64,000 nucleotides of DNA from the NCBI GenBank assembly GCA_030704615.1, contig CM060734.1, forward strand, positions 48,856,001 through 48,920,000, written 5' to 3'. This document shows positions 6,520 through 62,304 of this stretch, in pieces. This DNA comes from Takakia lepidozioides (taxonomy: Eukaryota; Plantae; Bryophyta). Under the pieces are notes generated by a model. The model saw only the letters and a list, made by a program, of their open reading frames with translations. It made no database searches and was not told the origin of the DNA. How positions within the stretch are numbered: position 1 is the stretch's first letter; each line of letters starts with the position of its first letter. The translations under genes and the position numbers were made by a program.

Positions 6520-6775
6520 TCGCCCCTCTAGCTGGTGGTTAGGTCCCTCTAACTCCAGATAGCTACAAGATATAATAGCCACAGCCGTACTAAGTCCTCT
6601 ATCACTGTCCCTATTGTACTCAAACTCTATAGACCAAGAGGCCGGGTACAAGAGCAACCCCATCGTTAGTTGTCGTCTTGCAATCTGTGAACTTGAGTCA
6701 GGATCTCGTGTGTTGGTCTCCTAGTAGCTTGGCCTTGCATTTCTTGTTAGCCTTCCATGGTTGTATCCACTCCCA

Positions 6776-9700: not shown

Positions 9701-9905
9701 AATTCAATGCGAATCTCTTGACCCTTCATGCTCCTAAGTCCTTCAAACTGAAGGCAAAGCAGTTCCTGTAAGCCCTCAAGAACCGCCGTATACGTCGTCT
9801 CTCTCCTCCGGTGACTATAAGTCCAACATCAGGCTCCTAGTTGTCCTCCGTGACTGCAACCTTGAGTCCAGCAGGCTTAGAGGTAGAAGACGCGTCCCGT
9901 GGTTG
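6776..9905 (-). pseudogene. pol of copy 1: RT, RNase H, integrase, PHD finger
   Basis: Motifs [40 protein letters not shown]...CMVC, DFAGP, TDQGREF, GLAER and a C-terminal C4HC3 PHD. Broken by premature stops and frameshifts. Confidence 0.92.
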
Positions 9906-12900: not shown

Positions 12901-14040
12901 CCTCCACATGTCCAACATATCACCCCTGGTTGCTGTTGGCCTGCAAAAGATGCCACGGGCCTCTGCACCTGAGGTCCCCTGTAAGCTCCATGGAATTTGG
13001 GTTGGGAAACCTTGCCCCCTGACCACGCTGTTGGGCAGTCCCTTGTGCCTGTGGGCTGGCAGCTGCGCCTCGTGCAGGCATGTCCTTGCCAAATCCAATG
13101 GTAACAACTCGCTCCTCCACCATGTTGAGCTCAATCCGCTCAGCCAGCAGAAACACATCCGCTAATGTGGGTTGGGCCGCTTGTAACAGGGTTGCATCCC
13201 GCACCCTTCTCCTGAGCTCCTTGTCCAAAATTCCATACCAGAATTGGACTGCCTGAGCTTCAGTAACCCCTTGGGTCACACTTATCAAGCGCCTCATACG
13301 AGTGTAGGCCTCTCGCAAGCTCTCACTGGATTTGCGCTGGAAGTCTTGCAAACTTCGCAGCTTCTCTGTCCTACACCTTGGTAGTTCCTCCGCAACTCCT
13401 GAAAGAACTCCACCACCGGGTTGAATCTAGGCACATGTGTTGTAGTCGTGGCAGGAGGAGTAGTAGCATCTTTTGAACTGGTACCACCTGCAGAAGTACC
13501 GACACTACTTGTTCCACTACTAGTGCTTGTAGTTGGAGATGTTTGTGTAGCTGCTGGTGTCACCGCTGCCTTGTGCCTCTAGTGATTGAGACATAGTTAG
13601 GTGACCAATACTCTCGCCACTCCTCAATCTCCACCGCATGTCCCCGCCTAAATTCATGGTAATCATCTATGGGCGGCCTCTCAAGGTGCTGGAATAGCCC
13701 CTTCCATGCCATAAAGGGCGTAAACAGTTGTGGATTGCGCATTTGCTGCAAATCACACCAACTGTCAAACTCTTATATAAAGTCATCAAGCTCGATGGTG
13801 CCCATAGCTCCAGAGTACCTACGTGGCCCCTTGGTAGCTCCATACATCTCCTCCATCGTGTCCCACAACAATGGCACGGAAATGACTTGCACCCTCGGCG
13901 AGAATCCTCCTGACTCCGAGTCTGAACCTTCCTCAGAAGACACTGAAGGTGAAAGTGGCCTAAACCGCACACCTTGTCTTGTGTACCCACTAGTATCGCT
14001 GGTGCTCGTACCGGCACTCCCCTCAGCAGCTGGTGGCACC
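9906..14040 (-). pseudogene. gag-protease-cytosine methyltransferase ORF of copy 1 (frameshifted)
   Basis: Zinc knuckles, LLDSGA protease, LDLFGG, AGWPCQ, ILENV, RAHRPR, ERERAMGF and RRQVLG are spread over ORFs 9906-10700, 10606-10890, 10803-12968 and upstream fragments. Confidence 0.9.
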
Positions 14041-14820
14041 TCCGTGATGAAAACTCACAACCCAACCGGTTGTCAACCTGTCTCTAATCCCCACTTTCTA
14101 CAAGGTAACCGGGTAAAGAACCTGTTGCGGCTACTGGTTCAAGCAGGAATAATAGGTTTCTAACGTAGACCTGTACCTGCACCTGCATCCACCGCAAGCA
14201 CTCCTATGGTCTGCTGGTCATCAACCCAGCCTCACCATAGAAGAAACACTGGTGGTCTTGCTGGTCATCACTCCAGCCTCACCACCGACAACATACTCTA
14301 GGATTGGCCGGTGATCAAATCCGGACCAACCTCCTATGAAAACAAGCGCCCACACAAAGCTAACATGGCACACAGTCAAGCATGCAGGTGTGGAGGGGAT
14401 CCAAACACAAGAAAATCAAGACAGCAACTCCCCCACACCAAAAACACTCCACAGTGTCGCTCCTGCAAGGACACCCCAGCCCAAACCCGGACTGACTCTT
14501 GCCTCCACCTACGGAAAGGTTTTGGCCTACAGAGAGGGTGAAAACTATGGAGAAGAGAAACTAAAGCAATTCCTAACCCCAGAATGCTCTCATCCCACCA
14601 CTCTCCCTCCTGTCTCTATCCACTCGCTTGTATGGCCGTGGCAAGTATCCTTCAATATCCCTCAATCAATCCTTCAAGAGCTCTTCAACATTGTCCACCA
14701 AAGCTCCTCGAAGGGTCCTCCAAGGACCCCAAAGATCCTCCAAATACTCCTCCAAGGGCCCTCAAATATCTTCCAAACAATCCTCCAAAGGCCCTTAAAT
14801 TTCACTAAGTCCTTTCACTA

Positions 14821-15215
14821 TTGATACCTTAACAGAGGTATAGTCTGAGGTTGCTAGGGTCCCTTATGTTGATGATACCTTTACAGAGGTATAGTCTGAA
14901 AATGAGGGTTCTGTTTGGTATACTAACAGAGGTTAGTCTGAGCTGATTAGGGTCCACATATGGTGATACCTCAACAGAGGTATTGTAAAAGGGACAAGCT
15001 CCTGTTTGGTATACTAACAGAGGTATAGTCTGAGCTGATTAGGGTTCACATATGGTGATACCTCAATAGAGGTATAGTAAAATGGACAAGCTCCTGTTTG
15101 GTATACTAACAGAGGTATAGTCTCACATTAGGGTTCACATATGGTGATACCTCAACAGAGGTATAGTCAAAGGGACAAGCTCCTGTTTGGTATACTAACA
15201 GAGGTATAGTCTGAG
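14821..15215. repeat. Tandem repeat (~45-bp subunits, ~90-bp higher-order period) in the leader of copy 1
   Basis: Recurring (g/t)atac(c)t(c)aacagaggtatagtc core, about 9 copies. Confidence 0.85.
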
Positions 15216-16524
15216 CATACACTACTAGGGTTTGTAATGAAGAGCTAGAATGCAAGTCCTTGACTTCTATGCTTCTACTCAAGCAAAAATATGGTCTCTA
15301 GGTGGTCATAAGAGGCATCTTCTTGCTCTCTTCCACCCCAATGTGCAACCAAGAGTGGTCCAACTCAACTTGCAAGTCATTGTCCACCAAATCAATCCCC
15401 CTTCTAGTCCTTGGGATTTGATTGCAAACTACCATATCTCCATTGCCGAGCAATCATGCATTTGTCTCCTCATCACTTGACAATTGCTCCAAATCAACAC
15501 AAATTATCTCAATGTGTAGGAGCAATGCTTGTCACTTACAATAATGCTCCCAAGCAATCCGCCTTGGATCCCACTCTCACGCCATATGCCTCATTTGGGG
15601 TCTTGCACCAATCCATCATCCATGTGCTCCCCGTGGTCATTTGAATGCATGTTTCATGACCTCTTGGCCTATGTGTTGCTCTCCTTCATCATAACATGAA
15701 TCAACACCTCTCCACTTCACACACAAATGGATCTCAAAGGCCTTCATCTCTTGCTAGTTCAAGAGCTCCCCTTCTCAAACTTGAACTTACAAACTCAAGC
15801 GAGCATGCTCCACACATGCACCACTTGCTTGGTCAACTATCCACCACAAAGCTCGCACTACCAAGAGCATGAATAGCCAAGTATTGCCTCCTCCTCTTGT
15901 CACATTACATAGTTAGGGTGAAGCTATGCATACATTGAATGATGATTTCCCTTCAAGGATTTCCCACCACATGTTCTCCAAGCCCTTCCAACGGCACCCT
16001 AAGCTTGGCTCCACACCACCATGATTGGAAGATTTCTTCACATGCTCCCTTTCAAAACCTCTTGAGCTTCTTAGTGCTCTCCAAGTGCTTGCCCTTGTTG
16101 TCTTCAAGCCCAAGCATATATAGCTCCTTGGCTTCTCTTCCACAACATCCACACTTTGAACTTGCTTAACCCTAGCTTGATAGTGAAATGAGCACTAACA
16201 AGCCTTTAGTCACTCTCCACAAGCCATGGCGCACACCATCGACTCCATAATGCATACAAAGGATTCTCAAACCCTAGAATCCATGCTTCCACACACACAA
16301 GACTTCCTCCTTACAATCCTTGCAAAATCTTGTGACTCAAGAGCTTTCTTCTCAAGCTCTCCAACTCCTTGTTGCATGCAATACTCGAGCACCCTTCCTT
16401 GCAACCCCTTGCAAGCCTTGTGATATAAGAGCTAAATTCTCCTAGCTCTCAACCTCTTTAAAATACAAGTGCAAAACTAATTCTTATACTCCGCACTCAC
16501 AAGCATAAGGTGATCTTCTTGTAG

Positions 16525-16945
16525 TGATAAGAGAAGAGAAATGAGAGAAGTAGAAGACAATGAAAGCTCTCAAAGCATGAAGCAATCACATGAAGAACAA
16601 GCCTTAGTCCTTCCAAGTGAAATCCACTTTATCACATAAACTAAGTCAAGCCAAGGGCACCTTTGCTAAAGGAATCCACCCTACAAAGCCCTCAACACAC
16701 TCCCTCTCAATACCTAGAGCTATGGAGGTGAGAGAAGCTCATGGAGGCTCAACTACAAGAAGATGAGCCTCCTCAACACTCACAAGGGGAAAACCTATCT
16801 CCATGTCTCAAGTGAGGCTCGACACCTCACTTGGCATGTGAGACCAAATGAAGTCCCAACACACAAAATATAAATATAAATATCTAAAATGTCCTAGTTA
16901 ACTAGAAGTAGGTAATTCTAGATAACCATGACTAAAACCATGACA
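16525..16945 (-). repeat. 5' terminal repeat A1 of copy 1
   Basis: Matches 6011-6431 with few substitutions; reads TGTC...TTATCA on the element strand. Confidence 0.92.
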
Positions 16946-18538: not shown

Positions 18539-21500
18539 TATCGCGCACCTAACTTCGGTAAGCTCCCCTTCAAGTCATAGTTACTCGCTTTGATGCGCGC
18601 GCCTAACTCCCAACCTGGCCGCCGGGCCAACTCGGAGCTTCGGCTGCTCACCGGGACATAACGGTCCCCCTTTACTCTTCCAATAGACCCTCCACCAATT
18701 TGGGCCTAGTGGAAATTCCCTTCGGTAGATGGCAGTCCGGAATAGCTCCCCACTCCTTGGTCGCTTTTCCGCTCGCTCGCTTACTCACTAGTTTTTGGTC
18801 ACCAACGGGCTTGCATCGTTCACGGGGTTACTACTCCCTATATATACTTCTGTGACTGTCCGCGGGGGTTTCATAAACAACCATGCCATTTTATGGCAAA
18901 CCACCGCGAAGACCCTCGATTCCCGGTGATGAGTCGCGTGAGTCTTGGCCCACCCACCACGGTCCCATTGGACCGTGATGAGTCCCAAGACTCCCCACGC
19001 CTCCCACCACAAGGTCTCCGCCCAATGGTGAGTCCTATGCCACCTCGACTAAGTCCCGCTAAGCTACCACCACCCCTTGTGGAGCCACCCCCACCGCAAC
19101 CCGGTGTGCGGGGCTCTACCTAGTGAGCGCCTCCGCCTCCTTGAGTGCCTTGGGCACTCAAGGGTGCTTCAGCCCCCCGTACCTATCACTGCCACTGCCC
19201 CCACCACAGGGGCAGCCCCTCCCGCGTCCCGACCCCCTACCCTCAAGGCAAAGGGCCGCGACATTAAACTTTGCCTTAGTGGAAGTGACATTAGCCGCCT
19301 TCATCACGTGTTTCAACGTCCCGCCAAACTGCGCCAACAACCCTTCCCAAAAGGCTGCTGGCATGGGAGACATCTGTTGGTATGTCGGAGCTCTCAGGAA
19401 TTCCTCGGGCTCCGACTCCTCAGATTCCTCCCGTTCTTGAACGGCCTCGCTTTCAAAAGCATGCATCGCTTCCTCAAATGGCCGCTTCGGTGACACGTCG
19501 CCCCCGTCGGGCTCACCAGGATCATCATCTTTCGGGTCGTTCCGCTTTCTCTTTCGCTTTGGCTTGCCCGACCCCATGATGAGGCCGATCCCAAGGACAA
19601 TCGCGTACTGAACTCTAAGCTCTGATACCCAAGTGTCGCGCACCTCACTTCGGTAAGCTCCCCTTCAAGTCATAGTTACTCGCTTTGATGCGCGCGCCTA
19701 ACTCCCAACCTGGCCCTCGGGCCAACTCGGAGCTTCGGCTGCTCACCGGGACATAACGATCCCCCTTTACTCTTCCAACAGACCCTCCACCAATTTGGGC
19801 CTAGTGGAAATTCCCTTTGGTAGATGGCAGTCCGGAATAGCTCCCCACTCCTTGGTCGCTTTCCGGCTCGCTCGCTTACTCACTAGTTTTTGGTCACCAA
19901 CGGGCTTGCACCGTTCTCGGGGTTACTACTCCCTATATATACTTCTGTGATTGTCCGCGGGGGTTTCATAAACAACCATGCCATTTTATGGCGAACCACC
20001 GCGAAGACCCTCGATTCTCGGTGATGAGTCGCGTGAGTCTTGGCCCACCCACCACGGTCCCATTGGACCGTGATGAGTCCCAAGACTCCCCACGCCTCCC
20101 ACCACAAGGTCTCCGCCCAATGGTGAGTCCTATGCCACCTCGACTAAGTCCCGCTAAGCTACCACCACCCCTTGTGGAGCCACCCCCACCGCAACCCGGT
20201 GTGCGGGGCTCCACCTAGTGAGCGCCTCCGCCTCCTTGAGTGCCTTGGGCACTCAAGGGTGCTTCAGCCCCCCGTACCTATCGCTGCCACTGCCCCCACC
20301 ACAGGGGCAGCCCCTCCCGCGTCCCGACCCCCTGCCCTCAAGGCAAAGGGCCGCGACGTTAAACTTTGCCTTAGTGGAAGTGACATTAGTCGCCTTCATC
20401 ACGTGTTTCAACGTCCCACCAAACTGCGCCATAACCCTTCCCAAAAGGCTGCTGGCATGGGAGGCATCTGTTGGTCTGTCGGAGCTCTCAGGAATTCCTC
20501 GGGCTCCGACTCCTCAGATTCCTCCCGTTCTTGAGCGGCCTCGCTTTCAAAAGCATGCATCGCTTCCTCAAATGGCCGCTTCGGTGACATGTCGCTCCCA
20601 TCGGGCTCACCAGGATCATCATCTTTTGGGTCGTTCCGCTTTCGCTTTGGCTTGCCCGACCCCATGATGAGGCCGATCCCAATGACGATCGCGTACTGAA
20701 CTATAAGCTCTGATACCAAGTGTCGCGCACCTCACTTCGGTAAGCTCCCCCTTCAAGTCATAGTTACTCGCTTTGATGCGCGCGCCTAACTCCCAACCTG
20801 GCCCTCGGGCCAACTCGGAGCTTCGGCTGCTCACCGGGACATAACGATCCCCCTTTACTCTTCCAACAGACCCTCCACCAATTTGGGCCTAGTGGAAATT
20901 CCCTTTGGTAGATGGCAGTCCGGAATAGCTCCCCACTCCTTGGTCGCTTTCCGGCTCGCTCGTTTACTCACTAGTTTTGGGTCACCAACAGGCTTGCACC
21001 ATGCTCAGGGTTACTACTCCCTATATATACTTCTGTGATTGTCCGCGGGGGTTTCATAAACAACCATGCCATTTTATGGCGAACCACCGCGAAGACCCTC
21101 GATTCTCGGTGATGAGTCGCGTGAGTCTTGGCCCACCCACCACGGTCCCATTGGACCGTGATGAGTCCCAAGACTCCCCACGCCTCCCACCACAAGGTCT
21201 CCGCCCAATGGTGAGTCATATGCCACCCCCACTAAGTCCCGCTAAGCTACCACCACCCCTTGTGGAGCCACCCCCATTGCAACCCGGTGTGCGGGGCTCC
21301 ACCTAGTGAGCGCCTCCGCCTCATTGAGTGCCTTGGGCACTCAAGGATGCTTTAGCTCCCCGTACCTATCGCTGCCACTGCCCCCACCACAGGGGCAGCC
21401 CCTCCTGCGTCCCGACCCCCTGCCCTTAAGGCAAAGGGCCGCGACATTAAACTTTGCCTTAGTGGAAGTGACATTAGTCGCCTTCAACACGTCTTTCAAC

Positions 21501-22529
21501 GTCCCGCCAAACTGCGCCAACAACCCTTCCCAAAAGGCAACTGGCATGGGAGGCATCTGTTGGTCTGTCGGAGCTCTCAGGAATTCTTCGGGCTCCGACT
21601 CCTCAGATTCCTCCCGTTCTTGAGTGACCTCGCTTTCAAAAGCATGCATCGCTTCCTCAAATGGCTGATTCGGTGACACGTCGCCCCCATCGGGCTCACC
21701 GGAATCATTATCTTTCGGGTCGTTCCGCTTTCGCTTTGGCTTGCCCAACCCCATGAGGAGGCCGATCCCGATAGCATACTGAACTCTAAGCTCTGATACC
21801 AAGTGTCACGCACCTCACTTCGGTAAGCTCCCCCTTCAAGTCATAGATACTCGCTTTGATGTGTGCGCCTAACTCCCAACTTGGCCGCCGGGCCAACTCG
21901 GAGCTTCGGCTACTCACCGGGACATAACGGTTCCCCCTTTACTCTTTCAAAAGACCCTCCACCAATTTGGGCCTAGTGGAAATTCCCTTTAGTAGATGGC
22001 AGTCCGGAATAGCTCCCCACGCCTTGGTCGCTTTCCGGCTCGCTCGCTTATTCACTAGTTTTTGGTCACCAACGGGCTTGCACCGTTCTCGGGGTTACTA
22101 CTCCCTATATATACTTCTGTGACTGTCCGCGGGGGTTTCACAAACAACCATGCCATTTTATGGCGAACCACCGCGAAGACCCTCGACTCCTGGTGATGAG
22201 TCGCGGTGAGTCTTGGCCCACCCACCACGGCCCCATTGGACCTTGATGGGTCCCAAGACTCCCCACGACTCCCACCACAAGGTCTCTGCCCCATGTTGAG
22301 TCCTATGCCACCCCCACTAAGTCCCCCTAAGCTACCACCACCCCTTGTGGAGCCACCCCCACCGCAACCGGTGTGCGGGGCTCTACCTAGTGAGCGCCTT
22401 CGCCTCCTTGAGTGCCCAAGGCACTCAAGGGTGCTTCAGCCCCCCGTACCTATTGCTGCCACCACCCCCCCCACAGGGGCAGCCCCTCTGCGTCCCGACC
22501 CCCTGCCCTCAAGGCAAAGGGCCGCAACA
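18539..22529 (-). repeat. Tandem array of four chromovirus LTRs separated by three PBS/gag-N-terminus spacers
   Basis: LTRs at 18539-19263, 19634-20358, 20721-21446 and 21804-22529, period 1083-1095 bp. TSD TTAAA flanks the first LTR. Confidence 0.93.
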
Positions 22530-23159: not shown

Positions 23160-23506
23160 TGTCAAGTTAAATAAGCACAGTGTGAAAACAGCTAGAATAA
23201 AACTAGTTATTTGTATTTAACACTTGGAGTTAGGTCAAGTGTTAAATCAGGTGTCAAGTTTAGTTTGACACCTGGTCTGTCTTATCTTCACGAGAGCGGC
23301 AGTCGCGCAGCTCATCTCTCTCGAGTTGAGCCTGCGCGACCGAGCTCCTGCATGCGTTTAGATCTGAGTGTACTCATGATGGGAGTGTAGGTTGTTGTGG
23401 GGTGGAGTCCCCATAGCTTGGGGTGCCCCTGGCTCGACTTCTATTTCTAAGAGTGATGGTTTGGTTTTCATGCTTTGCATCGTGTGTGACTTTAGCTTGC
23501 TTATCA
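23160..23506 (+). repeat. 5' terminal repeat A1 of copy 2 (347 bp, TG...CA)
   Basis: No differences seen by eye from 34766-35112. Confidence 0.95.
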
Positions 23507-23522
23507 CTCGAGAGAGATGAGC
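23506..23522 (+). promoter_or_regulatory. Putative self-priming primer-binding site
   Basis: ACTCGAGAGAGATGAGC is the exact reverse complement of 23310-23326 inside repeat A. No TGG tRNA-type PBS is present. Confidence 0.75.
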
Positions 23523-25815
23523 CTATCTAGTTTTCTAGTGCTAAGCTAGATACAATGTTCTTTTAACACTATTATAATATATAACTTGGGGCAGGAGCCC
23601 ATCTAGTCCTGCTGTTGCCATGGGTTTGCGCTTGTTGTTTACACATGGGCGTTGGTGGTGATCAGGGTGTAGTTATCCCTGTTTTGTGGTGGCGGGTGCG
23701 CGCGGGGGCCCTAGTAGCCTGCTGCCTGAGCGCTGGGGCAGGCTGAGCACCCAGTAGGCCAGTCGTGCCCAACTTGTGTGGTCCGTTGTGTTGCAGCTCA
23801 AGAAGGGCCATTGGCTTGTAGCCCATTCTGGCTTGCAGGCATATTGCTGGATTCACCGTGACCTGTAGCGCTGATGGTTTTATTTGGCGGGAGCGGTAGC
23901 TTGTCAAGAACCAGGTTGGCATGAGTGTAGAAATTGGTCAAGTTGGCCCAAGTCCTTGGTGATGGGGTCTTGCAGTGACCACTGAACTGTCTGCCTGCAT
24001 CTGTGTTGTTGTTTGCCCCTGTGCGGAGTCTCCGGACGTGCTGTCGACGGGTCTCGGCGTTGCGCACTCGTGTATGGTGTGAGTAGTGAAGGTCGAACGA
24101 GAAGCAGAGCGCGCTGGATGGCGGGGCGCAGGGATGCACCATCTCTCCCATCTGTTGTTCCGTTGTTTTTATGGAAACACTTTGTTCATCAGTTGTTTTT
24201 GTTTGGATCAAGAACCGAGGGTGCAGAACAAGCCTTCCACATCTTGTGGTGCTGGGGAGGCAGCGGACGAGCAGAATGTGATTGGTAATGTTGGGGGACT
24301 GTAGAGAGGGGTTGAGAGATGTACTCAAATGGAGCAGCAGATTATGGTTTTCACTGATGCGTGATGCTTGCTTGCTAACTGCTTGCTTGCTGACCAGATT
24401 AAGGACTGGGTTATGGAGTTGAAAGCGGGATCCTACTTGTCAAGGCCCAAGTGCAGAGTCCCTTCCAAGTGGTAGCTACGCCTCCTACGAAGCCTTCAGG
24501 GATCCCAACAAGACTAGGTCATAACACTTCGCTGTTTCTGTGTGCGGGTATTCTATGCACCGTGAATTGTCTTTTGGCTTGACCAGCACCTAGTAATCTG
24601 GTCGAAGAAGGGGCCCTTTTGAATATCTGGCATGTAGGTCAGCACTGGAGCATGGAACAGCGCTGACTGGAGTTCTTTAAAGATCCTTCACAATGGTGCG
24701 ACTGCAGCTTTGGCAATATGCTTTATGTAGAACGTGAAGGAGTCTGTCAGGGAGGATATTTACTGACTCGGTTATGGTGAACTGGATTGTACCCCTAGTG
24801 GTTGAATGACGTAAGAGTCTTGGTTTCTCCTCGGAAAGAGGCTCTTACTGTCAGCAGCTTAGGTTGCTCTTTCTAAGCAGGGTAGGGAAGGAGGAAAGTT
24901 GGGGTTTTTCCCTTGCAGCTGGCAAGGTGCTTAGAATGGTTAAACAGCCATCCTCCGTGATCGGTTCTCTATATTGTCTTTGGAACCGTAGCCCTACTCA
25001 CTGCCACACAGATTGATCAGCTAGCTCTCGGACTTGAAGCCAGTGGACAACAGTTCTTTGGGGTTTTGAGAGCCCCTGCTAGTAAGCAAGGATCAGAGGA
25101 CAGATCTGCCACAAAGCCAGGCACATTGCCGAGTGGTCGAGGCACGCGTACTTCCGTGCACTGCAGCTGGGTTTCCACATAGCCGACAGGCTTGAAGAAA
25201 GGTCCCAGCTGGGGATCACTCAATTTGGACACTGCTAAGCTGGTGTGTGGGGCAGGCTTTGCAGGAACTTGCTTGCCAACTTTACTTCAATGAAACTTGT
25301 GAGGGTGCCAAGGTGAAGTGTTGCTAAGGGGAAATGAGCTCCACGACCTCCATTGTCACCATGGTTTGTGGTAGAAGACGGTTGGGATTCCAAAGCATGG
25401 TGAGCTGTTGAACTCAAATGAAATGGAGGGGAACAGCAGGCACGTGGCCAGGGAACCTAGGATGCCATATAGAACTTAGGGAACCGGGAACCAGTTACCA
25501 GACATTTTGGGTGTAACTTTAAATTGTTAAACTTGAAAACCTTTAAAAAAAAAAAAAACCCTTTTTAATCTAATTTGAATGATTTGGAGCCAAATTCATC
25601 ATATCTTTGTCAAATGGACTCTGGTTGACCCAGTTTTTGGGGGATAGCTGCAGAAAGGGGAAATCTACCTATCTAAACCTGGTTTCTGCTTTGGGGACTC
25701 TGCTAAAAATCTATGGAATTTTTAGAGTGTGAGAGTGCCATGAAAGATCCACAATCCTGTCTCTAGAACCTGTGCTGGTCTATATGAGAGACAAATTGGT
25801 GGATGTACTCCATGC

Positions 25816-26565
25816 ATGGCTGGGGGAAATGAGGACGTAATTGAAGGGCAGGTCTCTTCTCTTAGTCTGTGCACACAAGGGGACACGATTTATGTTTCCC
25901 AAGGAACTCAGACTGATTTGAGTGGAGAACAGTTGGACGAGTTGATTGCATACTGGGAGTCAGGCATTAGCAGTAGACAACAGACTGCTGTAGTTGGCAT
26001 TGAGGGCCTCAATATCGCCTTGGACAGTCAGAACTCTGTTGGAGCCAGCAGTTCTGCAGCTGTAGGTGAAATACCAAAGTGGGTGAAAGCTAGGCTTGGA
26101 ACACAGCCAAAGACAGCCCCGGGGACCAAGGTGTTCAGCCACAAGGCCGTGGTGTACTGGAGCAGAGGAGCAGGAGCTGCACAAGTTTGTGCAATTAGAC
26201 AGTGTTGCAGTCGGACACGCTCTGCACAAGGCAACCACGAGCGGGGGTTCATTAGCGAGGACAAGTTTGTTCTGTTTGAAGGCGATGCAGTCATTCGCAA
26301 TGAAGACACCCGCAATCGTCTCAAAGCTTTCGAGTTGAGAGACTATCAGACCCTACCTTTGTTTTCTTTAGTGTTCAGTGAGCGGGAGATAGCAGAGTGT
26401 TGCTTTGTCTCTACCTGGCAGAAAGAGGAGGAGGGTTGGTTAGAGCGAGCTACTGTAGCTTGGGACAAGGTTAGTGGCAGGTTTCTGGACATAGATATAC
26501 CTCCTACACCTTACCATCAAGCAGAGCGAGGCACTTTGAGAGAAGTCTGGAAGTTGATAGCATAG
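25816..26565 (+). CDS. Accessory ORF of unknown function in the leader of copy 2 (249 aa)
   Basis: Uninterrupted ATG-initiated ORF, sense to gag; no motif recognised. Confidence 0.45.
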   Translation: MAGGNEDVIEGQVSSLSLCTQGDTIYVSQGTQTDLSGEQLDELIAYWESGISSRQQTAVVGIEGLNIALDSQNSVGASSSAAVGEIPKWVKARLGTQPKTAPGTKVFSHKAVVYWSRGAGAAQVCAIRQCCSRTRSAQGNHERGFISEDKFVLFEGDAVIRNEDTRNRLKAFELRDYQTLPLFSLVFSEREIAECCFVSTWQKEEEGWLERATVAWDKVSGRFLDIDIPPTPYHQAERGTLREVWKLIA

Positions 26566-27084
26566 ATCAGGATTAGATCTTGCTTGGGCGGGCTTCTATT
26601 CTTCCCCTCCATCTCTGTACTATTTTCATTACCTTGTACTTGTAGTTGCCAAAGCCTCTCTTGGTGGAGGCCAGTCAGTCCGGGGTTTTGGGCTGGGATA
26701 TTCTGCAGGATCAGCGTTGCTGCTGGATTTTGGTGTGGGGGTGTTGATGTTTTGATTTCTTGTGTTTGGATCCCCCCCAACACCTGCATGCTTGACTGTG
26801 CGCCATGTTGGTTTTGTGTGGGCGCTTGCTTTCATAGGGATTAGGCCGGATTTGATCACCGGTCAATCCTAGAGTATGCTGTCGGTGGTGAGGCTGGAGT
26901 GATGACCAGCAAGACCACCAGTGTTTCTTCTATGGTGAGGCTGGGTTGATGACCAGCCAACCATAGGAGTTCTTGCGGTGGATGCAGGTGCAGGTGCCCT
27001 GAGCCATTGGGATATGACCCTTAGACTGCAACAGGTGCCCACCCGTGTCACTATTAGATTAGTACTAGAGCCTTATAGTGTCAC

Positions 27085-30000
27085 GTGGAGGAGGTGCACA
27101 TTGTGAGTGTCATTACGGAGTTACCCAAGGGTTTTGAGGGGAGTACGGCTACAGGCAGTAACAGTGAGAGTGGGTTCACAAGACGAGGTATTCGGTTCAG
27201 ACCACCTTCACCGCCACCCTCAATTACTGTAGAGTCAGACACAGACTCGGAGGCTTCATCAACAGGTGTGCACTTTCATTCGCCATTGTTGTGGGACGAC
27301 ATGGAGGAGATGTATGGAGCTACCAAGGGGCCTCGTAGGTACTCTGGAGCTGTGGGCACAATCGAGTTGGATGACTTTATCCAGGAGTTCGACAGCTGGT
27401 GTGATTTGCAGCAGATGCGCAATCCACAGCTATTCACCCCATTCATGGCGTGGAAGGGACTGTTCCAGCATTTGGAAGGCCCGCCTATGGACGATTACCA
27501 CGAGTTCAGGCGAGGACATGAAGCAGAGATTGAGGAGTGGAGGATGTATTGGTCACCTGACTACATCTCCATTACTCGAGGCACGACGCGACCAGTAGCT
27601 GCATCAGTACCAATAGCTCCCACTGCCAGCACTAGTAGTGGAGCAGGTAGTGCTGGTACTTCTGCAGGTGGTACCAGTTCAGAAGGTGCTACTACTCCTC
27701 CTGCCACAGCTACAACACATGTGCCTAGATTCAACCCGGTGGTGGAGTTCTTCCAGGAGTTGCGGAGGAACTACCAAGGTGTACGGACAGAGAAGCTGCG
27801 AAGTTTGCAAGACTTCCAGCGCAAACCCAGTGAGAGCCTGCGAGAGGCGTACACTCGTATGAGGCGCTTGATAAGTGTGACCCAAGGGGTTACTGAAGCT
27901 CAGGCAATCCAGTTTTGGTATGGAATTCTGGACAAGGAGCTCAAGAGAAGGGTGCGAGATGCAACCCTGTTACAAGCAGCCCAACCCACATTAGCAGATG
28001 TGTTTCTGCTGGCTGAGCGGATTGAGCTCAACATGGTGGAGGAGCGAGTTGTTACAATTGGATTTGGCAAGGACATGCCTGTACGGGGCACAGCTGTCAG
28101 CCCACAAGCACAAGGGACTGCCCAACAGCGTGGTCAGGGGGGCAAGGTTGCCCAGCCCAAGTTCCATGGAGCTTACAGGGGACCTCAGGTGCAGAGGCCC
28201 GTGGCATCTTTTGCAGGCCAACAGCAACCAGGGGTGATATGTTGGACATGTGGAGGACCCCATGTCAAGAGAGATTGCCCAGAGAGTGGCAGAAGGCCGG
28301 CACAAGCACAGCCTGCACAGTTGCAGTGTGGGCATTGTGGCAAGTATGGGCATGGAGATGCCCAGTGTTATGACTTGCATCCTGAGTTGCGCCCAGGCCA
28401 GTTCCAAGGGAACAATGGTGGCCGGGGGCGAGGTGGACCAGCCCAAAGAGGACGAGGTGGTCGGGCACGAGGTGCAGGCCAAGGGCAACCTCCACATGGC
28501 CAAGGACGCGGAGGTCAGGGTGTTGACCAAGGCATGGCCAATCGGCTTCAGCAGCTAGAGCAGAGGCTCGCTGCCATGGCTATAGCTCAGGCGGTACCGG
28601 CTCCCAGGCGGGATGGCCCACCTCCTGCTCCTGAGGGAGGAGATATGGGCGGCATGGGATTCATGTGCGGAGCAGCACTACCATTAGAGCAGGTGGAGTC
28701 TGCTGCAGCCGTGACTCGAGGAGCAACACGAGTTCCTGAGCCACGAGGTGCAGAGGTGGAGTTGGATCCACAACGTGGGGAGGCAAGCCGTCAGGCAAGG
28801 CTGCCTCAGTCATTCACCTTGGCGGAGACAGTGTCAACGCCATCCATGGCACCTAGTTCTCGCCCGACTGTTACCGAGGCGGAGGTTACTATGCCATTGG
28901 GGAGAGCTACCCGTGCAGCACTGACACCTATTACCAAGGCTAGTGCAGCCGGTGTGTTATTGGGAGCAGCCACCTCTGTGTGTCAAGCCCCACTGTTCTC
29001 GGCGACCATGATTGCGACGCCGGGAGTGAGACCAGCTGCAGTGTTCAGACTAGCAGCAACACTCTGCGAGAGTGGAGAGGTCACTTCATCTTCTGCGGAG
29101 TTAGTGGAAGGTGTAGTGGCAGAGGGATCCTCGGATTTGAGGGTCAAGACTGCCACGGCAGCGCCCTGGCAAGCTGCAGCTGCCAGATTGACGGAGCTGC
29201 CAGCTAGGCCAGCCTTTGAGCGCGCCATGGTGACACCTGGAGTTGTCTTGTTAGACAACCAGGGAGGCATTTTCACTTTGAGTGGACCGGCAGGCAAGAA
29301 GTACCGGCCACTGCGGGTCTTGTTGGACTCAGGAGCTCAGCCACTGATGTTGGGCAGAGCTGCTATTGCAGGTTTGGGCCTCATGGAGGCGGATATGGAG
29401 CCTTGTCCTTTCCAGATACAGACATCTCTGGGAGGATCAGAGCAGGCTCGCGGCATGACACGGCATCAGTTGGCTATTAGACTGCAGCCGGATCATCCTG
29501 TAGATGGCTCAGTGATGCGAGCCAAGGCCATTGTGACAGACGCGGTCTCTTACGATGTCCTCGTTGGTGGGGCAGTGTTATACCCCATGGGCTTCACCCT
29601 GGATTTCTGGGAGGAGTCAGCATCCTACAGGCCTGGATGGCAGTCAGGGGATGGTCGCCGTGCACAGCTCCCTGTGACATTCATTGGGGGTATTGCAGCT
29701 GCTCAGCGGGGCAAGATGCCAACACTAGCCGCCTTCACAGCTGCAGTTAGTTGGCCTGGAGAGTTGCTGGAAGGCAATGCCCATGCAGAGGATGTGCCAC
29801 CTCCAGCAGAGCAGGATGACATGCATGGTACGGCGGAGTTGCCTGCCATGGTTGCTCACACTCCGTTGTGGGGTACGAGCAAGGATTTGCAGCACGCTGC
29901 TGATGGACGGGTGCAACAAGCTTGGGTAGAAGCTTTTGTACCGTCAGGAGAGGAGGAGAGTGCGGTGATTGTACCAGGGCCACCTCAGTTGTCGCCATTG

Positions 30001-31286
30001 GACACCACACCTCTTGTGTGGCAGCGACCGGATGAAGGCATATGCCTTCTGGACTTATTTGGCGGGATCAGCACTGGATTGGCTGCAGTGCTGCAGGCAG
30101 GTGTACGAGTTCGACGTTACCTGTATGTGGAGAGGGATGAGACTGCACGACGCGTCTCACTGCGCCATGTTGCTCAGATGGTGCAGCAGCACCCTGAGTT
30201 GTTGCCGGTGTCTGCAGTTCGTGGATATCAGCAGGCCTTGCCAGCAGACATTGCGTTGCTGGGGGCGCAAGATTTGGAGCAGGTTGGCTCCATTGATCTG
30301 ATAGTGGCAGGTTGGCCCTGCCAAGGGCATTCATCAGCCGGGCATGGCAATGGATTGCGAGACTCGAGGACGGGTCTGTTTTGGGAGATGGTGCGGATTT
30401 TGCGCTGCTTGCAGCTTCATCAAGCTGTATCTCCAGCATACATCTTGGAGAATGTACCACTGATGGGTGATTCTCGGGCCAGGGTGATGGCCAGTGTGCA
30501 TCAAGTCCGGTCGTGGCTTGGGTCAGCAGTGTTGCTGGATGCAGCTGCAGTGGGGTCACGGGCTCATCGTCCACGACTATGGTGGACTAACTTGATGCCA
30601 CCCGCACTGCTCAAGCGTGCATTTGATGGGGTGCAGCGGCCAGCACACCTCACCGTGGATGGCATTTTGGACACAGGAAGGCAGTCTCAACGTGTGAGAC
30701 ACGATGACCGTTCGCCTTTGGCAGTGGTCAACAGGGTGGGTCAACCACGAGCAGCATTACCTACACTGCTCAGCTTCCCAGGATCCCATGCTTTTCGGGA
30801 TGGTGGACCTGGCCTCCTGTGGGATGCTCAGTTGCAGCAGTTAGTGGAGCCTAATGCCGACGAGCGAGAGCGGGCTATGGGGTTTTCCACTGGGACCACG
30901 GCGGTGCCTTCCTTTCTGAGGCATCACGTCGTCAGGTGTTGGGGCAAGCAATGGATCTCAATTGCTTGACCTGGATTGTCAGCTTGGCTATGGCTGAGCA
31001 ACGTAGAGTGCGGAGTGCACTTCCCTTGACGGTCTCTCTGCCTACCGAGACGGTACAGGCAGCGAGTGGGGGCGAGCCGGTGAGGACCACGAGGTGTAGA
31101 CATCCATGGCACATGTGGGAGGTGCTCGAGGTTCAGAGGGAGTTGGCAGCGAAGGCAGCTGTGATGGATGAGGTTGGGGATTCTTCTCGGGATGAGGAGG
31201 TTCTCAATGATGAGATGATGGGGCAGGATGAGGCCTTGTCATTGACTGAGCAGGAAGGGGGTACTGCTCAAGAGGTTGCAGCATAG
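27085..31286 (+). CDS. Gag - aspartic protease - C5 cytosine DNA methyltransferase polyprotein (one 1-nt frameshift near 30913)
   Basis: 1294-codon open frame with CWTCGGPHVKRDC and CGHCGKYGHGDAQC knuckles, an RGG tract, VLLDSGA and DNMT motifs at about 30030-30960. Copy 1 shows the frame continuing to QEVAA-TAG. First ATG is at 27301. Confidence 0.9.
30031..30960 (+). other. DNMT3-like cytosine-5 methyltransferase domain
   Basis: Motif I LLDLFGGISTG; II YVERD; IV DLIVAGWPCQ (PCQ 30316-30324); VI YILENV (ENV 30448-30456); VIII RAHRPRLWWTNL; IX ERERAMGF; X RRQVLG. Confidence 0.92.
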
Positions 31287-34200
31287 CAACCACGGGACGG
31301 TCCTCTACCTCTAAGCCCACTGGACTTAAGGTTGCAGTTACGGAGGACAATTGGGAGCCTGACATTGGACCCATTGTCACCGGAGGAGAGAGACGACGTA
31401 TACGGCGGTTCCTGAGGGCTTACAGGAATTGCTTTGCCTTCAGTTTGAAGGACTTGGGAGCACTGAAGGGTCAAGAGATCCGTATTGAGTTGGCCACTGA
31501 CACGCCAATCTTTCGGAGACCCTATAGATACAGTGACATGGAGAGGTCTTTGATTCAGATGAGGACTCAAGATCTCTGGGAGGCAGGTTTGGTGGAGCTC
31601 TCTGGTGGAGAGTATGCTTCAGCCACAGTGATGCCAGCTAAGAAGGATGTCTATGGCAATTGGACGGAGAGACGTATGTGCGGTGATTACCGGCCTGTAA
31701 ATCGTCAGACCAAGTCCGATAGGTATGCCATGCCAACACCAGAGGAGATCTTTGATGCCATTGGGCATTCCAAGGTCTTTAGCACGTTGGATTTACGATC
31801 CGGATATCACCAGTTGCCGATCAAGGAGGCGGATAAGCAAAAGACGGCATTTGGGGGATCAATGAGCACGGGAAGGATTGCCTATACCAGTGGCGGTTCT
31901 TACCATTTGGGCTTAAAAACGCTCCCGCTGAGTTTCAAAGAGTCATGGACAGGATTCTAGCAGGGGTGGAGTTTGCTCGGTGCTACATAGATGACATCAT
32001 CATCTTTAGTGCTGCGGTGGAGGAGCATGAGAGACACCTTCAGGGGGTATTTGAGCGCTTGAGGACGCACGGATTGAAGTTACATCCGGGCAAGTGCAAG
32101 TTTTTCCACAACCAGATTGAGTATCTGGGTCACATGATATATCCTGGAGGATTGGGGGTACAGCAGACTAAGGTAGAGTCCATTGCACAGGTTCCACGTC
32201 CCACGGATGTGAGCCGAGTTCGAGCTTTCATGGGGTTAGCAAACTATTACAGACGGTTTGTTAAGGGATTTAGTGCCATTGCAAAGGCTCTAACCAAGCT
32301 GACCAAGGTGGACCAGGAGTGGCAGTGGGAAGATGAGCAAGAACAAGCTTTTCAAGAGCTCAAGGCGAGGTTGACCTCGGCGCCCATCTTGAGACGACCT
32401 ATCAGGGGGCGTCCCTTTCAGCTGCATACAGATTGGAGCATGCTGGGGCTTGGAGCGGTGCTCACACAGGTGGATGATGAGGGAAGAGAGTTCGTAGTGG
32501 CTTATGCTAGCCGCTCGAACAATGCTGCAGAGTCTAAGTATAGCTCATATGAGGGAGAATGCTTAGCTGCAGTGTGGGCCGTGGCACACTTCAGGTGCTA
32601 TTTATACGGCAATCTCTTCACCCTTGTCACGGATCACCAACCACTCAAGTGGTTGATGGAGTCAGACAAGCTTACGGGGAAGCTTGCACGGTGGGCACTC
32701 ATCCTTCAAGAGTATGACTTTCAGGTGGTGCATCGACCGGGTTTGGTCAATCGAAATGCAGATGGGTTGAGTCGCAATCCATGCACGAGCCAGCAGGATG
32801 ACACTGGAGCTCGGTGGCATGGTGAGACGGACGAGGAGATGGTGCCCGGATGGCATGCATCTGCATTTCTGTGTATCTTGGCAGCGGAAGGCCAGGTTGG
32901 ACCTACAACAGGGATGACTGTAGATCAAGTGTCTGAGGACCCTGAGGCCAGCAATGAGCAGGGTGGCGCCAAAGATATACATGAGGATTCAGTTGTGTTG
33001 GACTACCTCCGCAGTGGAGACACGGCAGCCACTATGACTGCCAAGGAGAGGGATCGGATCCTACAACGAGCCAAGAGGTTCAGGTGGGAGGGGACACACC
33101 TGCTTCGAGTGTGGGAGGATGGTCGAGTGAGGATTGTGCCTCACCCAACACAGCGGGCACGGTTAGTGCGGCATGCCCACGAGGAGTTGGGGCATTTTGG
33201 GGTGCGACGCACCCATAGTCTACTGCAGGGGCAGTATTGGTGGCGTGGTATGCACACAGAGGTGCAACAATTTGTGGCTAGGTGCATGGTGTGTGACAGG
33301 GTGCGTGCTTCATTCAACGCCCCTACTCCACAATTGCACCCTCTTCCGATCATGGGATTGGGCTACAGGTGGAGTCTTGACTTCGCAGGGCCGTTGCCAC
33401 TGACCATGCGCCACAACAAGTACGTGTTGGTGATGGTGGAGCACTTCTCCAAGTGGATTGAATTGGTTCCATTGCCTGATAAGGCTAGTGAGGGAGCTGC
33501 GTATGCATTCTTGGATTGTGTGCTTAGCCGATTCGGTGCTCCAGCTGAGGTACTCACGGACCAAGGGAGAGAGTTCTTGGGGGAGTTTCAAACTTTGTGT
33601 GACAAGGCCTTGATAGACCACCGCACCACTTCTCGGGATTATCCTGAGGCCGATGGCTTGGCAGAGAGAGTTGTTCAGACAGTAAAGAGGGGTTTGCGCA
33701 AGTATGGCTTGCAGAAGGGACACCTAGGAGATTGGGACCTTCAGTTACCCTGGCTAGCCATGGGCTACAGGTTCAGCAAGCAAGCATCACTTGCCTCCTT
33801 CTCACCATACTTTCTTCTCTTTGGCCGAGAGCCGGATTTGCCTACATCCATTCGCAGAGAAGCTGCTACAGTTCTTAACCTTGACGATCCGGACGTGTGG
33901 GCACGTGCATGTGAGCAGCGTGCAGAGTTGTTCAAGAGAGTCATGCCCATGGCTTTCGAGAACCTTGCCATTGCACAACACCGTGATACGTTGAGGTATG
34001 CTACCATACGTGGTGGGGGCTATCGTCCTGGGGTTCGGAGATTCAACCCTGGTGACTATGTCTATCTGCAGCAGACTGCTCCTACGACCCTGGATGTGAC
34101 TGCAGGACGTGTTATTTTGAGGGTTCGAGAGGTCTTGCCCTCAGGCGTCTTGGTCTTGGAGGGTCGGGATGGCATAACTTGGAAGGACCATGTGCGTAAT

Positions 34201-34419
34201 TGTGCGCCATGTCACCTTCCGAATGTCGATGGCAGGATTGACCCAAACCTGGCAGTGGTATCTGCAGGTTTGAGGTGCATGTTGTGTGGGTCTGCTAAAG
34301 GGGCAGCCACCATGCTGGTGTGTGATCGATGCTCTAGAGGTTGGCATATGGGATGCTTGACTCCACCTCTTGAGATGGTTCCAGATGGGGATTGGTTATG
34401 TCCACAATGCATTGGATAG
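31287..34419 (+). CDS. Pol: reverse transcriptase - RNase H - DDE integrase - PHD finger (1-nt frameshifts near 31299 and 31853)
   Basis: YIDD; TDWS/EGE/TDH RNase H; HHCC; D-D-E (DFAG, TDQG, LAER); PHD at 34276-34416. Gypsy domain order. Confidence 0.92.
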
Positions 34420-34667
34420 TGGGAGTGGATACAACCATGGAAGGCTAACAAGCAACGCAAGGCCCAGCTACAGGATACCTTGAATACACGAAGGCCTGGC
34501 TCAAGTTCACAGATTGCAAGACGGCGACTAACGATGGGGCTACTCTTGTACCCGGCCTCTTGGTCTATAGAGTTTGAGTACGATAGGGACAGTGATAGAG
34601 GACTTAGTACGGCTATGGCTATTACGTCTTGTAGCTATCTGGAGGTAGAGGGACCTATCCACCAGCT

Positions 34668-34677
34668 AGGGGGGCGA
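34668..34677 (+). promoter_or_regulatory. Polypurine tract directly upstream of B1
   Basis: AGGGGGGCGA; the equivalent sequence sits at the same position in copies 1 (from 6520) and 3 (from 48487). Confidence 0.7.
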
Positions 34678-35198
34678 TTGTGGTAGACTACTTTATTGTG
34701 CATATATGTGTGGTGTGGTTCGGACAGCGATGTAGTTGTGTAGCGATATGTATGCGCACGACAGCTGTCAAGTTAAATAAGCACAGTGTGAAAACAGCTA
34801 GAATAAAACTAGTTATTTGTATTTAACACTTGGAGTTAGGTCAAGTGTTAAATCAGGTGTCAAGTTTAGTTTGACACCTGGTCTGTCTTATCTTCACGAG
34901 AGCGGCAGTCGCGCAGCTCATCTCTCTCGAGTTGAGCCTGCGCGACCGAGCTCCTGCATGCGTTTAGATCTGAGTGTACTCATGATGGGAGTGTAGGTTG
35001 TTGTGGGGTGGAGTCCCCATAGCTTGGGGTGCCCCTGGCTCGACTTCTATTTCTAAGAGTGATGGTTTGGTTTTCATGCTTTGCATCGTGTGTGACTTTA
35101 GCTTGCTTATCATTGTGGTAGACTACTTTATTGTGCATATATGTGTGGTGTGGTTCGGACAGCGATGTAGTTGTGTAGCGATATGTATGCGCACGACA
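34678..35198 (+). repeat. 3' terminal B-gc-A-B block of copy 2
   Basis: B1 34678-34763, GC 34764-34765, A2 34766-35112, B2 35113-35198. Confidence 0.95.
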
Positions 35199-35691
35199 CC
35201 AATGTCAAGCGATATGTATGAATCATATATACACACATCATGTTTCAATAGTCTTATTATTACGTAACTTGGTGAATGAGGTCATGACATACGTGGACAC
35301 GAACATGTCTGATGAAAATGAAGACATTCATAATGACCCCACAACAAATGAGGGCGACATTGCACGAACAAAACTTCTTGAGCTCATGGGTGATTTGAAG
35401 TTGGAGCTTGTCAAAGTGCGGAGCCAGGTGAAAGACTACTCCTCAGAAGAGTTGAAATGCAAGTTGAAAGCGATCAAGGAGTGTGTGACATCTATCACCG
35501 AACCATTTACTTTCACACGGCCTTCCACAATTTCTCTACCTTCCAAAGGTTCTATATATGGTATACAAAAGAATGTAAGGAGGACTAAGATGGGGCATGA
35601 TAATACCAAAAAACGCATTGTTATTGATAGAGACGAAGCTTGGCCGCAAACTAAACGTCCATCCATAAAGCTAATAAGTTGTTATTATTAA
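35199..35691 (+). pseudogene. Probable 3' remnant of the MULE transposase gene
   Basis: Directly continues the sequence interrupted at 23159. AT-rich ORF with similar composition; no diagnostic motif. Confidence 0.45.
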
Positions 35692-55427: not shown

Positions 55428-55432
55428 GAATC

Positions 55433-58830: not shown

Positions 58831-60365
58831 CATCCATGGCCGCTCTGGCAGTTTAGCCATTTCTCCAAGGGGTTTAGCCACGCCAAGCTAGGGTTTGTGT
58901 CTCTTGGACTCTAGGCTTCTTTCCACCGAGCTATGGCGGCTGTGAGGAAATCAGCAAGGTATTCTTGCTCTTTCGGCTCCCACACACCACCATAGTAGCC
59001 CTAAGCCATGAGGTGGTTGCCACAAACCAAGCCTTCTTTCTCACTTAGCCTCCCCAAACACGCCACTAAACTCAATGGCAAACAACCAAGCCCTGCTGGT
59101 TCCCAGCCCTTATGAGCACTCATTCAAGCACTCTCCTTGGCCATAGCATCTGTCTTAGAGCCTATTCCAGCCCCCTACACCTGCTGCTTCAAGAGTTGCG
59201 CTCCCTTCAAGCTTGAAGTTGAAACCCAATTCACATAGGCCCTACAAGTGCTTTTCTTTCACTCCAAGTGGAAACCAGCCCTAGACCTTCCGTTCTAGCT
59301 CTCTAAAGCTTGAAAACAAGAGCCTCAATGGGCTGAAGGCATGCTCCACACATGCCCCACTCTCACCATAAGAGAATCAGCTCCTTTGCTTCATTTCTTG
59401 CACCCACAAACCTGAAAATACAAGCTTCAGCAGGCTGAAAGCATGCTCCACACGCCCTACAAGGAAACCAGCCCCTTCCTTCCTTTCTTGCACTCCCACA
59501 CCTGAAAGTGCAAGCCTTCACCAGGCTGATAGCATGCTCCACACATGCATTGCCCTCACATAAGGGAAGTCAGCCCTTCCCTCTTCCTTGCTTGCCCTCC
59601 AAGCTTGAAGATGGAAGCTTCAATGAGCTGAATACATGCTCCACACATGCAACCTCTTCACACATGAGATATCAGCCCCCTATCTTGGCTCCTTAGCTCC
59701 TTGATGCTCTCTAAGACAAGACTAAGCACTCCACAACCTTTGCCAAGCTCCTGAAACCCTAAGGCTTACATTTCCAGCCACAAGACACTTCTCTTGTGGT
59801 GCAAGAGCTCTTCTTCCAAGCTCTGAAACCCTAGGTGCACATTCCATGGCCTTGCCGCACCTCTTAGCTCCTGTTCCAGCCCTGCTCTTGCCATGACAAG
59901 AGCCCTCTCAATGCTGAAGCTCGAGATTGAAACCCAATCTCACCATACTCCACAAAGTGCACTGATTTGCCCCAAGCCAAATCAGCCCTTTCGCTTGGTC
60001 TTGCAATCCTTCACACAATGAAAGCTCGCATTCCCAAGTCCAGTTCTCAGCTTTGCCACCAAAGCCACTATAACCTACTCTTGACTGGTCCTCTTCCCAA
60101 TCGTGCTTGCTCATGCATGTACACAATCTGAAACCATCAAGGTGCTCTGGAATTACCTGCAGCATGGTGCTTTCATCTCTGAAGCTGAAGATCGAATGCC
60201 AAGGTCTACCACCTCGTAACCCATATCGCCTCCGCTTCTAACAACCAAGAGCTCCACGGTGCTCCTTGCATAACAACTTGGTTTCTCTCATTCTCAAGCA
60301 AAAACCACAAGTGCTACAACTAACTCGTATCTGGCACTCACAGATACGAGCTCATCTTTCTCGAG

Positions 60366-60682
60366 TGATAAAGAAGAAGAATACAAGCACAACCTCACAA
60401 ATCTGAAGCATAAACTCATGCATATATAACCTCATCACTCAAATACAAGTCAAGCCAAGTGCACCCCACGCCATGGGGAATCCACATTACGGCGCCATAG
60501 CTAGGCGCGGTGAGGCTCAACTCGAGAAAGATGAGCCTCCCGCGTTTGCCGTGAAGATCACCACTCCAGGGCCTAAATCTGCCTTGACCCCTGGATTGAC
60601 ACTTGGGCCAATCCCAAATGTCAATATGTAAAAGCTAGCTATTTCCTAGCTAGTTTCACACTAGTGGTAAAATAACTTGACA
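60366..60682 (-). repeat. Orphan A-type 5' repeat of another subfamily, with its own self-complementary PBS
   Basis: TGTCAAG...TTATCA on the minus strand; 60350-60365 is complementary to 60521-60536. Confidence 0.8.
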
Positions 60683-61882: not shown

Positions 61883-61954
61883 GACATAGTGCTAACATAA
61901 AAGAACTCTATCTAGCTTAGCACTACAAAAACTAGACAGGTCATCTCTCTCGAG

Positions 61955-62304
61955 TGAATGAAAACTAAAATCACACTGTTGACACAAGAACATGAAATAC
62001 AACACCATCACTCGTTAAACTAAGAGTCGAGCCAAGGGCACCCCAAACTATGGGGACTCCACCCCACAATATCTTATTTCTCCTTCATAAGCACACTCAG
62101 ATTCTAAGCAGTGAAGGAGTTCGGTCGTGCAGGCTCAACTCGAGAGAGATGAACCGCACGATTGACGCTCTCGTGAAGATAAGATGGTTCAGGTGTCAAG
62201 CTAAACTTGACACCTGACTTAACACTTGAACTAAATCCAAGTGTTAAATATAAATAACTAGCTTTATTCTAATTAATTTCACACTGTGTTTATTTAACTT
62301 GACA
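61955..62304 (-). repeat. 5' terminal repeat A1 of copy 3
   Basis: Similar to 48049-48399 with scattered substitutions, and related to repeat A of copy 2. Confidence 0.9.

Follow-up and report, generated by a model that had tools for sequence, protein, structure and literature searches.

Primer binding sites complementary to the 5' repeat suggest Tf1-style self-priming in methyltransferase-bearing Ty3/Gypsy elements of Takakia lepidozioides

Ty3/Gypsy retrotransposons of Takakia lepidozioides that encode a DDE integrase, a PHD finger, and a C5 methyltransferase domain probably prime reverse transcription in the style of Tf1, with the 5' end of their own RNA. Self-priming in some form is very likely. 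The elements were found in a stretch of 64,000 nt of contig CM060734.1 (GCA_030704615.1; 48,856,001 to 48,920,000, forward strand), which we call the window. Each primer binding site (PBS) has its complement in a short site of the element's own 5' repeat, and this complementarity is real and well above chance. Tf1-type self-priming, possibly with a switch between hairpin and duplex, had been put forward in a sequence-only reading of the window. The priming proposal is well supported by inference from the pairing kept in outside families, the TATA spacing, and the absence of TGG from the PBS, whereas the switch at the RNA 5' end is not.

The window contains three copies of the element and one orphan repeat (Table 1). 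The order of parts in copy 2 is A1, PBS, ORFs, polypurine tract (PPT), B1, GC, A2, and B2, and the layout A1-coding-B1-A2-B2 was found in all three copies. The elements end in TGTC...GACA (AACA in copy 3) and all three are flanked by 4-bp target site duplications (TSDs). In copy 2, A1 equals A2 and B1 equals B2 exactly, and the A2|B2 junctions differ by a few bases among copies. The flank after the copy 2 TSD (35199-35209) opens with the element's own first seven 5' letters, through chance or a target preference. In metagenome data, all four repeats were visible in 9 of 80 loci, two of the nine being one locus, and exact 4-bp TSDs were present in 5 of 8 distinct full metagenome loci versus 3 of 3 window copies. 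The motif GACA-NN-TGTC stands at the B1|A2 junction alongside a DDE integrase (window 34678-35202; L003, L004, L015, L026, and L064). Only the arrangement A...BAB was observed, never ABA...B, so that the choice of cut site looks one-sided.

Table 1. Positions of element features in the window, counted from its first letter
Feature	Position	Strand	Basis or remark
Copy 2, whole element	23160-35198	+	Repeats and TSD CCAA
Copy 2 repeat A1, 347 bp, TGTC...TCA	23160..23506	+	Identical to A2
TATCTT, non-canonical, -31 from predicted start	23283..23288	+	Sequence; spacing from relatives
Copy 2 hairpin around primer site	23302..23340	+	5' arm 23302-23314
Copy 2 predicted 12-nt self-primer	23314..23325	+	12/12 pairing with PBS; inferred start
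R/U5 stem-loop domain	23326..23437	+	23326-23332 pairs with 23431-23437 and abuts primer 3' end
Copy 2 PBS, directly 3' of A1	23507..23518	+	Pairing extends over 23506-23522
Copy 2 ORF1: gag-like/protease region and C5 cytosine methyltransferase domain	27079..30969	+	PF00145, E=1.5e-12; protease match in relative L146
Copy 2 pol, two frames (broken copy): RT, RNase H, H2C2, rve integrase, PHD finger	31250..34419	+	Domain matches
Copy 2 G-rich PPT, directly 5' of B1	34668..34677	+	Sequence
Copy 2 repeat B1, 86 bp, ends in GACA, then 2-nt spacer	34678..34763	+	Repeat comparison
Copy 2 repeat A2, second primer copy and full hairpin	34766..35112	+	Repeat comparison
Copy 2 repeat B2, identical to B1, element end, TSD CCAA	35113..35198	+	Repeat comparison
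Copy 1 repeat A1; primer 16753-16764; element 5925-16945, TSD GCTC	16525..16945	-	Sequence
Copy 1 PBS	16513..16524	-	Pairing
Copy 3 repeat A1; primer 62139-62150; element 47963-62304, TSD GCCC	61955..62304	-	Sequence
Copy 3 PBS	61943..61954	-	Pairing
Orphan A repeat from a different subfamily, nested in copy 3; primer 60521-60532	60366..60682	-	Sequence
Orphan PBS	60354..60365	-	Pairing

Domain searches of the window element recovered the Gypsy order RT-RNase H-integrase, with a PHD finger in place of a chromodomain at the integrase C-terminus. Neither Chromo nor SH3_Tf2-1 was matched in it, while both are present in a neighbouring chromovirus. No tyrosine recombinase was matched among the nine ORFs scanned, and an rve integrase is present. 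The methyltransferase domain (PF00145) closes ORF1 just ahead of the RT frame, and a homologous region was found in 17 of 18 loci tested and is absent in L050. Copies 1 (6011-16945) and 2 (23160-35198) are 92% alike over 8 kb of their insides and their A repeats hardly align, which implies a faster turnover of repeat and primer than of the coding region. A sequencing run presumed to be RNA contains contigs about 99% identical to the copy 2 coding region (window 25816-34757); together with the exact identity of A1 with A2 and of B1 with B2, this suggests that the family was recently active. The window also has a class I methyltransferase ORF (PF08241; 46065-46904, plus strand), and a tandem array of 10-bp units lies inside copy 3 (58031-58831). 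Some full elements contain orphan A+PBS units from other subfamilies or have them upstream (window 60300-60682, minus strand; L064:300-560), and the sequence following the window orphan is unlike other 5' regions.

The complementarity claimed from the window sequence was recovered as exact reverse complements at all four places. Positions 23506-23522 pair with 23310-23326 in copy 2 (17 nt), 16513-16524 with 16753-16764 in copy 1 (12 nt), 60350-60365 with 60521-60536 in the orphan repeat (16 nt), and 61941-61954 with 62139-62152 in copy 3 (14 nt). The runs become 17, 13, 17, and 15 nt long, respectively, once the final base of A1 is counted. In all four cases, as had been noted, the PBS directly follows A1, whose last letters are TCA, and in each of them primer and PBS pair at 12 of 12 positions, where the chance expectation of a perfect 12-mer match within A is 1.4e-5 to 9.8e-5 per copy. 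The proposal that both partners change together was borne out by copies 1 and 2, which differ at 5 of 12 PBS positions and are each fully paired, but the distinct pairs number three rather than four, because copies 2 and 3 share one primer sequence. Among the substitutions listed (at least 40), none falls in 23310-23349 or 23501-23522, an observation of little weight as other stretches are blank too.

One metagenome scan returned 80 loci with 22 scorable A1+PBS copies, which fall into families M1 (4 copies), M2 (17), and M3 (1); L027, a duplicate of L026, and L075, whose PBS is one base off the search pattern, were left out. Together with the four window copies, these make 26 A1 copies, and the addition of L146, the one usable locus among four from a later scan, brings the sample to 27 PBSs. 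Controls were 286 windows placed 30 to 270 nt further downstream. A perfect run of at least 10 nt was found in 17 of the 26 A1 copies, 16 of these 17 runs being at the primer site, and none of the 286 control windows reached that length (maximum, 9 nt). The 24 copies with a locatable site show 258 Watson-Crick and 10 G-U pairs at 288 positions, counted in register. Of the remaining two, L074 has no TATA anchor and so is not scorable, and L005 keeps its PBS and has lost the primer site. In L005 (4235-4640), the site was removed from A1 by a deletion at the hairpin that left a PBS-like string, and the event may have been a hairpin-driven rearrangement. The register for M2 was the best of ten, with the identical choice applied to the controls, and on this basis M2 pairing averaged 10.4 positions (n=16) versus 5.3 in controls (n=1040), with at least 10 paired in 14 of 16 copies versus 4 of 1040. 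Old M2 copies are imperfect, with 7 to 12 of 12 positions paired.

L146 was found after the model had been set and fits it, with a PPT, a GACA-GC-TGTC junction, a TATA box, and, 29 nt further, a primer paired at 12/12 positions (maximum in its controls, 7). Its PBS is a seventh sequence version. Across the three versions in the window and the four of the outside families, primer and PBS match at 12/12 positions within a family and at 2 to 11 of 12 across families, and just 2 of 12 PBS positions are constant; each primer in this comparison is the best match in its own repeat, and the controls set the chance level. The covariation check over more copies that the sequence-only reading had proposed thus found pairing kept in four outside families with different sequences, the lost site in L005 aside. 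L146 (9285 bp) was assembled as a circle with open frames, ORF1 and pol being separated by one stop codon, and its record bears the title of a cyanobacterial genome bin, where it is most likely eukaryotic carry-over.

An inverted-repeat scan without constraint gave too much noise over 25 loci, no self-match (6 to 7 nt) and no Tcn1 reference came from three LTR elements nested in other loci, and scans of viral contigs with P0002 and P0060 gave no match; eight of 65 viral loci were used, as tree rows only. A plausibly placed 11-nt match occurs in the deep member L050, but its contig holds four such matches. A PHD finger is present in L050, the methyltransferase region was not detected there, and a similar junction motif lies near 4767-4779.

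The primer site is placed as a transcription start would be. It begins 29 nt after the TATA box in three M1 copies and in L146 and 30 nt after it in M3, and a search without constraint put the best site 31 to 34 nt after TATAAA in 12 of 17 M2 copies. The range over the four outside families, about 29 to 34 nt, is the ordinary spacing between TATA box and start. The A of a pyrimidine-A step serves as the first base in most families. A canonical TATA box is absent from all four window copies, and copies 2 and 3 carry TATCTT at -31. From these spacings, we infer that the copy 2 RNA starts at 23314. In copy 1, pairing goes exactly as far as the predicted first base; it reaches 2 to 5 nt upstream of that base in copy 2, copy 3, the orphan, and M1, an extension that a start slightly further upstream would fit as well.

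The primer site had been described as the loop of a GCTCA...TGAGC hairpin. This hairpin is present, the five window repeats fold with z scores of -3.3 to -6.1, and five of its pairs have changes on both sides among window subfamilies. The predicted start is the last base of the 5' arm, which therefore lies upstream, so that the hairpin would be absent from the RNA 5' end and would form only in A2. A significant hairpin was absent from both M2 copies tested; in M1, M3, and L146, the primer itself pairs with the upstream arm, which closely resembles the PBS. The other arm, TGAGCC, has a partner in U5 with which it forms an R-U5 stem paired in 42 of 42 cells over seven copies (100%, versus 75% for the arm in the hairpin), although this stem shows no change on both sides over the seven copies and whole-sequence MFE folding does not pick it in every copy. 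Given the upstream position of the arm, the U5 partner of TGAGCC, and the M2 result, a hairpin/duplex switch at the RNA 5' end is not favored, and the hairpin is likely to be a mask for the spare primer in A2, or a strand-transfer signal. The primer copy was predicted to be less open with the upstream arm than without it in 10 of 10 repeats, a comparison without a control in which some differences are tiny.

Folding of copy 2 from 23314 gave a three-way junction of the primer/PBS duplex, the R-U5 stem, and a U5 stem. The primer/PBS duplex appeared in both the MFE and the centroid structure (z = -3.8; -3.0 for L146), and the sequence 3' of the PBS mostly folds on itself. Primer-helix counts are in-register counts; in the structural alignment, the M1 rows are one base off in the primer, and its helix 1 was not used. 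Rfam searches of the window at the gathering level returned nothing, with no ribozyme or tRNA-like part detected and one chance-level miRNA match over A1.

These features can be assembled into a model of replication. The first 12 to 13 bases of the RNA would fold back onto the PBS, and the resulting duplex would join the R-U5 and U5 stems in the three-way junction. The element's RNase H, a domain that the search detected, would cut after base 12, and the freed piece would act as primer, as in Tf1, where pairing with the PBS involves the first 11 bases and RNase H cleaves behind them (PMC7175516 and PMC4600332). Minus-strand synthesis would proceed from the end of A and then transfer to A2, and plus-strand synthesis would copy the primer into a new PBS, which would keep the partners matched. 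Because Tf1 cDNA often keeps a PBS copy at its 3' end (PMC11042837), plus-strand copying could carry a change in the LTR into the PBS, and the matched changes may be partly mechanical rather than selected alone. The hairpin in A2 may hide the spare primer from the PBS. Since the PPT lies just ahead of B1, B+A would be the working LTR, and we hypothesize that end-joined cDNA opened at the internal GACA-NN-TGTC would give the integrated A1...B1A2B2 form.

Two other forms of self-priming were weighed against this model. If the RNA started upstream of the loop, a 5' hairpin could form first and then switch to the PBS duplex, releasing a longer primer. The stability and covariation of the hairpin, the extension of PBS pairing over GCTC in copy 2 and the orphan, the lack of a clear TATA box in window copies, and a PBS duplex that still wins when folding starts at 23295 all fit such a switch. 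We nevertheless consider it unlikely, since the TATA spacing in four outside families places the start at the loop, copy 1 pairing does not pass the predicted first base, a significant hairpin is missing from M2, and the 3' arm is better conserved in its pairing with U5. It is quite improbable that the primer is instead the second copy of the site, in A2, with an RNA 3' end that lies or is cut there annealing to the PBS. A2 is identical to A1, so the two copies are indistinguishable by sequence; the split repeats show a replication that departs from the standard LTR route, and a hairpin could mark an end. The 5' edge of the site, however, tracks the TATA box at start-site spacing, folding predicts partial pairing of the A2 site with sequence upstream of it, and a standard PPT precedes B1.

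Priming by a host tRNA fragment or another small RNA, with the LTR/PBS pairing serving packaging, translation, or silencing, is very improbable, although plant Copia lineages with half-tRNA priming are known (PMC6317226) and ARAGORN detected no tRNA, in the window or among 51 loci, with which the PBSs could be compared. A TGG start is absent from all 27 PBSs, which therefore cannot pair with a mature tRNA 3' end. The seven PBS versions each track their own LTR, and a PBS that changes with its LTR at 10 of 12 positions is a poor fit to a fixed host primer. Furthermore, DNA synthesis must begin at the A1 boundary, and the duplex ends there or no more than 3 nt away. A TGG-type PBS (GGG in one copy) follows three chromovirus LTRs of the window, with a self-match of only 6 nt; we take this motif to be the initiator-Met site. 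That chromovirus (18539-22529, minus strand) has four LTRs of about 725 bp in a tandem array spaced about 1.09 kb apart, three of them followed by the TGG-type PBS. Copy 1 is inserted inside it, and a relative is inserted inside copy 3. Tf1-style priming by the RNA 5' end is the preferred reading.

The nearest named proteins are from liverworts (72 to 78% identity), followed by those of Klebsormidium, Closterium, and Tetraselmis (about 38 to 53%). In RT-RNase H trees, the window elements and these proteins, those of K. nitens included, form one clade (SH-aLRT 99 and 90) that lies apart from the 6 to 7 plant chromovirus rows sampled, in trees that hold no Tf1 or Tcn1 row. An AU test did not reject the grouping of M2 with the window/M1 group (P = 0.167), and we therefore make no claim that the algal members are bracketed by self-priming groups.

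To our knowledge, self-priming is known in Tf1/sushi elements, Tcn1, and TAR. The mechanism proposed here is thus known from Tf1, and the lineage is, by domain content, not a Tf1/sushi chromovirus. We found no report on priming in the chromodomain-less methyltransferase Gypsy clade in the literature covered, that is, outside subscription journals and Repbase entries, and the accessible part of a 2026 preprint that mentions streptophyte Gypsy-DNMT3 does not contain the word "priming" (10.64898/2026.05.21.726589). In a reference survey of plant elements, Ty3 self-priming is confined to Tcn1 chromoviruses and non-chromoviruses use tRNAs (PMC6317226). A self-priming chromodomain-less clade with at least seven covarying primers would break this rule and point to a further origin of self-priming. 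It would also explain how split-repeat, methyltransferase-bearing Gypsy elements start reverse transcription. The positions of primer, PBS, and PPT would fix B+A as the working LTR, which would make the A-B-A-B layout testable, and the signature could serve annotation pipelines for elements without a standard PBS. More speculatively, and we regard this as doubtful, a green-lineage Ty3 clade may combine self-priming independent of Tf1/sushi, a U3 "anti-primer" present only in the 3' repeat that hides the spare primer, and integration from end-joined cDNA opened at GACA-NN-TGTC. If true, such an LTR life cycle, self-methylating and independent of host tRNAs, would differ from all those worked out so far.

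Among known systems, the Tf1/sushi group (Tf1/Tf2, Tj1, and plant Tcn1) offers the closest parallel in priming, since its members likewise have a PBS directly after the 5' repeat that is complementary to a short site there, an 11- to 13-nt primer, and a multi-stem 5' RNA structure, which in our case is predicted. They are chromoviruses with a chromodomain and ordinary LTRs, whereas the window elements have a PHD finger, a methyltransferase, and split repeats. The three-duplex "pretzel" that Tf1 requires (PMC10085805) is matched partially, with U5-end and R-U5 stems predicted and no conserved duplex downstream of the PBS. For one Tcn1 element, there was evidence of neither priming mode (PMC2864245). 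Self-priming was predicted from the same type of evidence in plants for the Ty1/copia TAR lineage (Houba and Osr-1; PMC6317226), which belongs to another superfamily with another domain order. The non-chromoviruses Phygy (moss) and Selgy (clubmoss) share the lack of a chromodomain, a 4-bp TSD, and non-seed plant hosts; they use tRNA-Trp or tRNA-Ala PBSs, in contrast to the 27 PBSs without a TGG start here, and the three window TSDs do not fit the NCGN target of Phygy. Troyka was ruled out as an identity by its CG ends, its 3-bp TSD, and its restriction to animals. DIRS-group A-B-A-B elements such as SymbioDIRS-Dnmt3 have the same repeat arrangement but integrate by tyrosine recombinase, unlike the window elements with their rve integrase and 4-bp TSDs. 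The nearest described element is KnitGypsy-Dnmt3 of Klebsormidium nitens, reported to have Gypsy domains, a DNMT in the polyprotein, and DIRS-like A-ORFs-B-A-B repeats in a paper (de Mendoza et al. 2018, PMC5890265) whose main text contains none of the terms "priming", "primer binding", "PBS", or "polypurine". The window elements differ from it in their host, another plant, and in having liverwort proteins as nearest named relatives; they share with KnitGypsy-Dnmt3 the Gypsy domain set, the DNMT domain in the polyprotein, and the split-repeat layout, and they fall into one RT-RNase H clade with K. nitens proteins.
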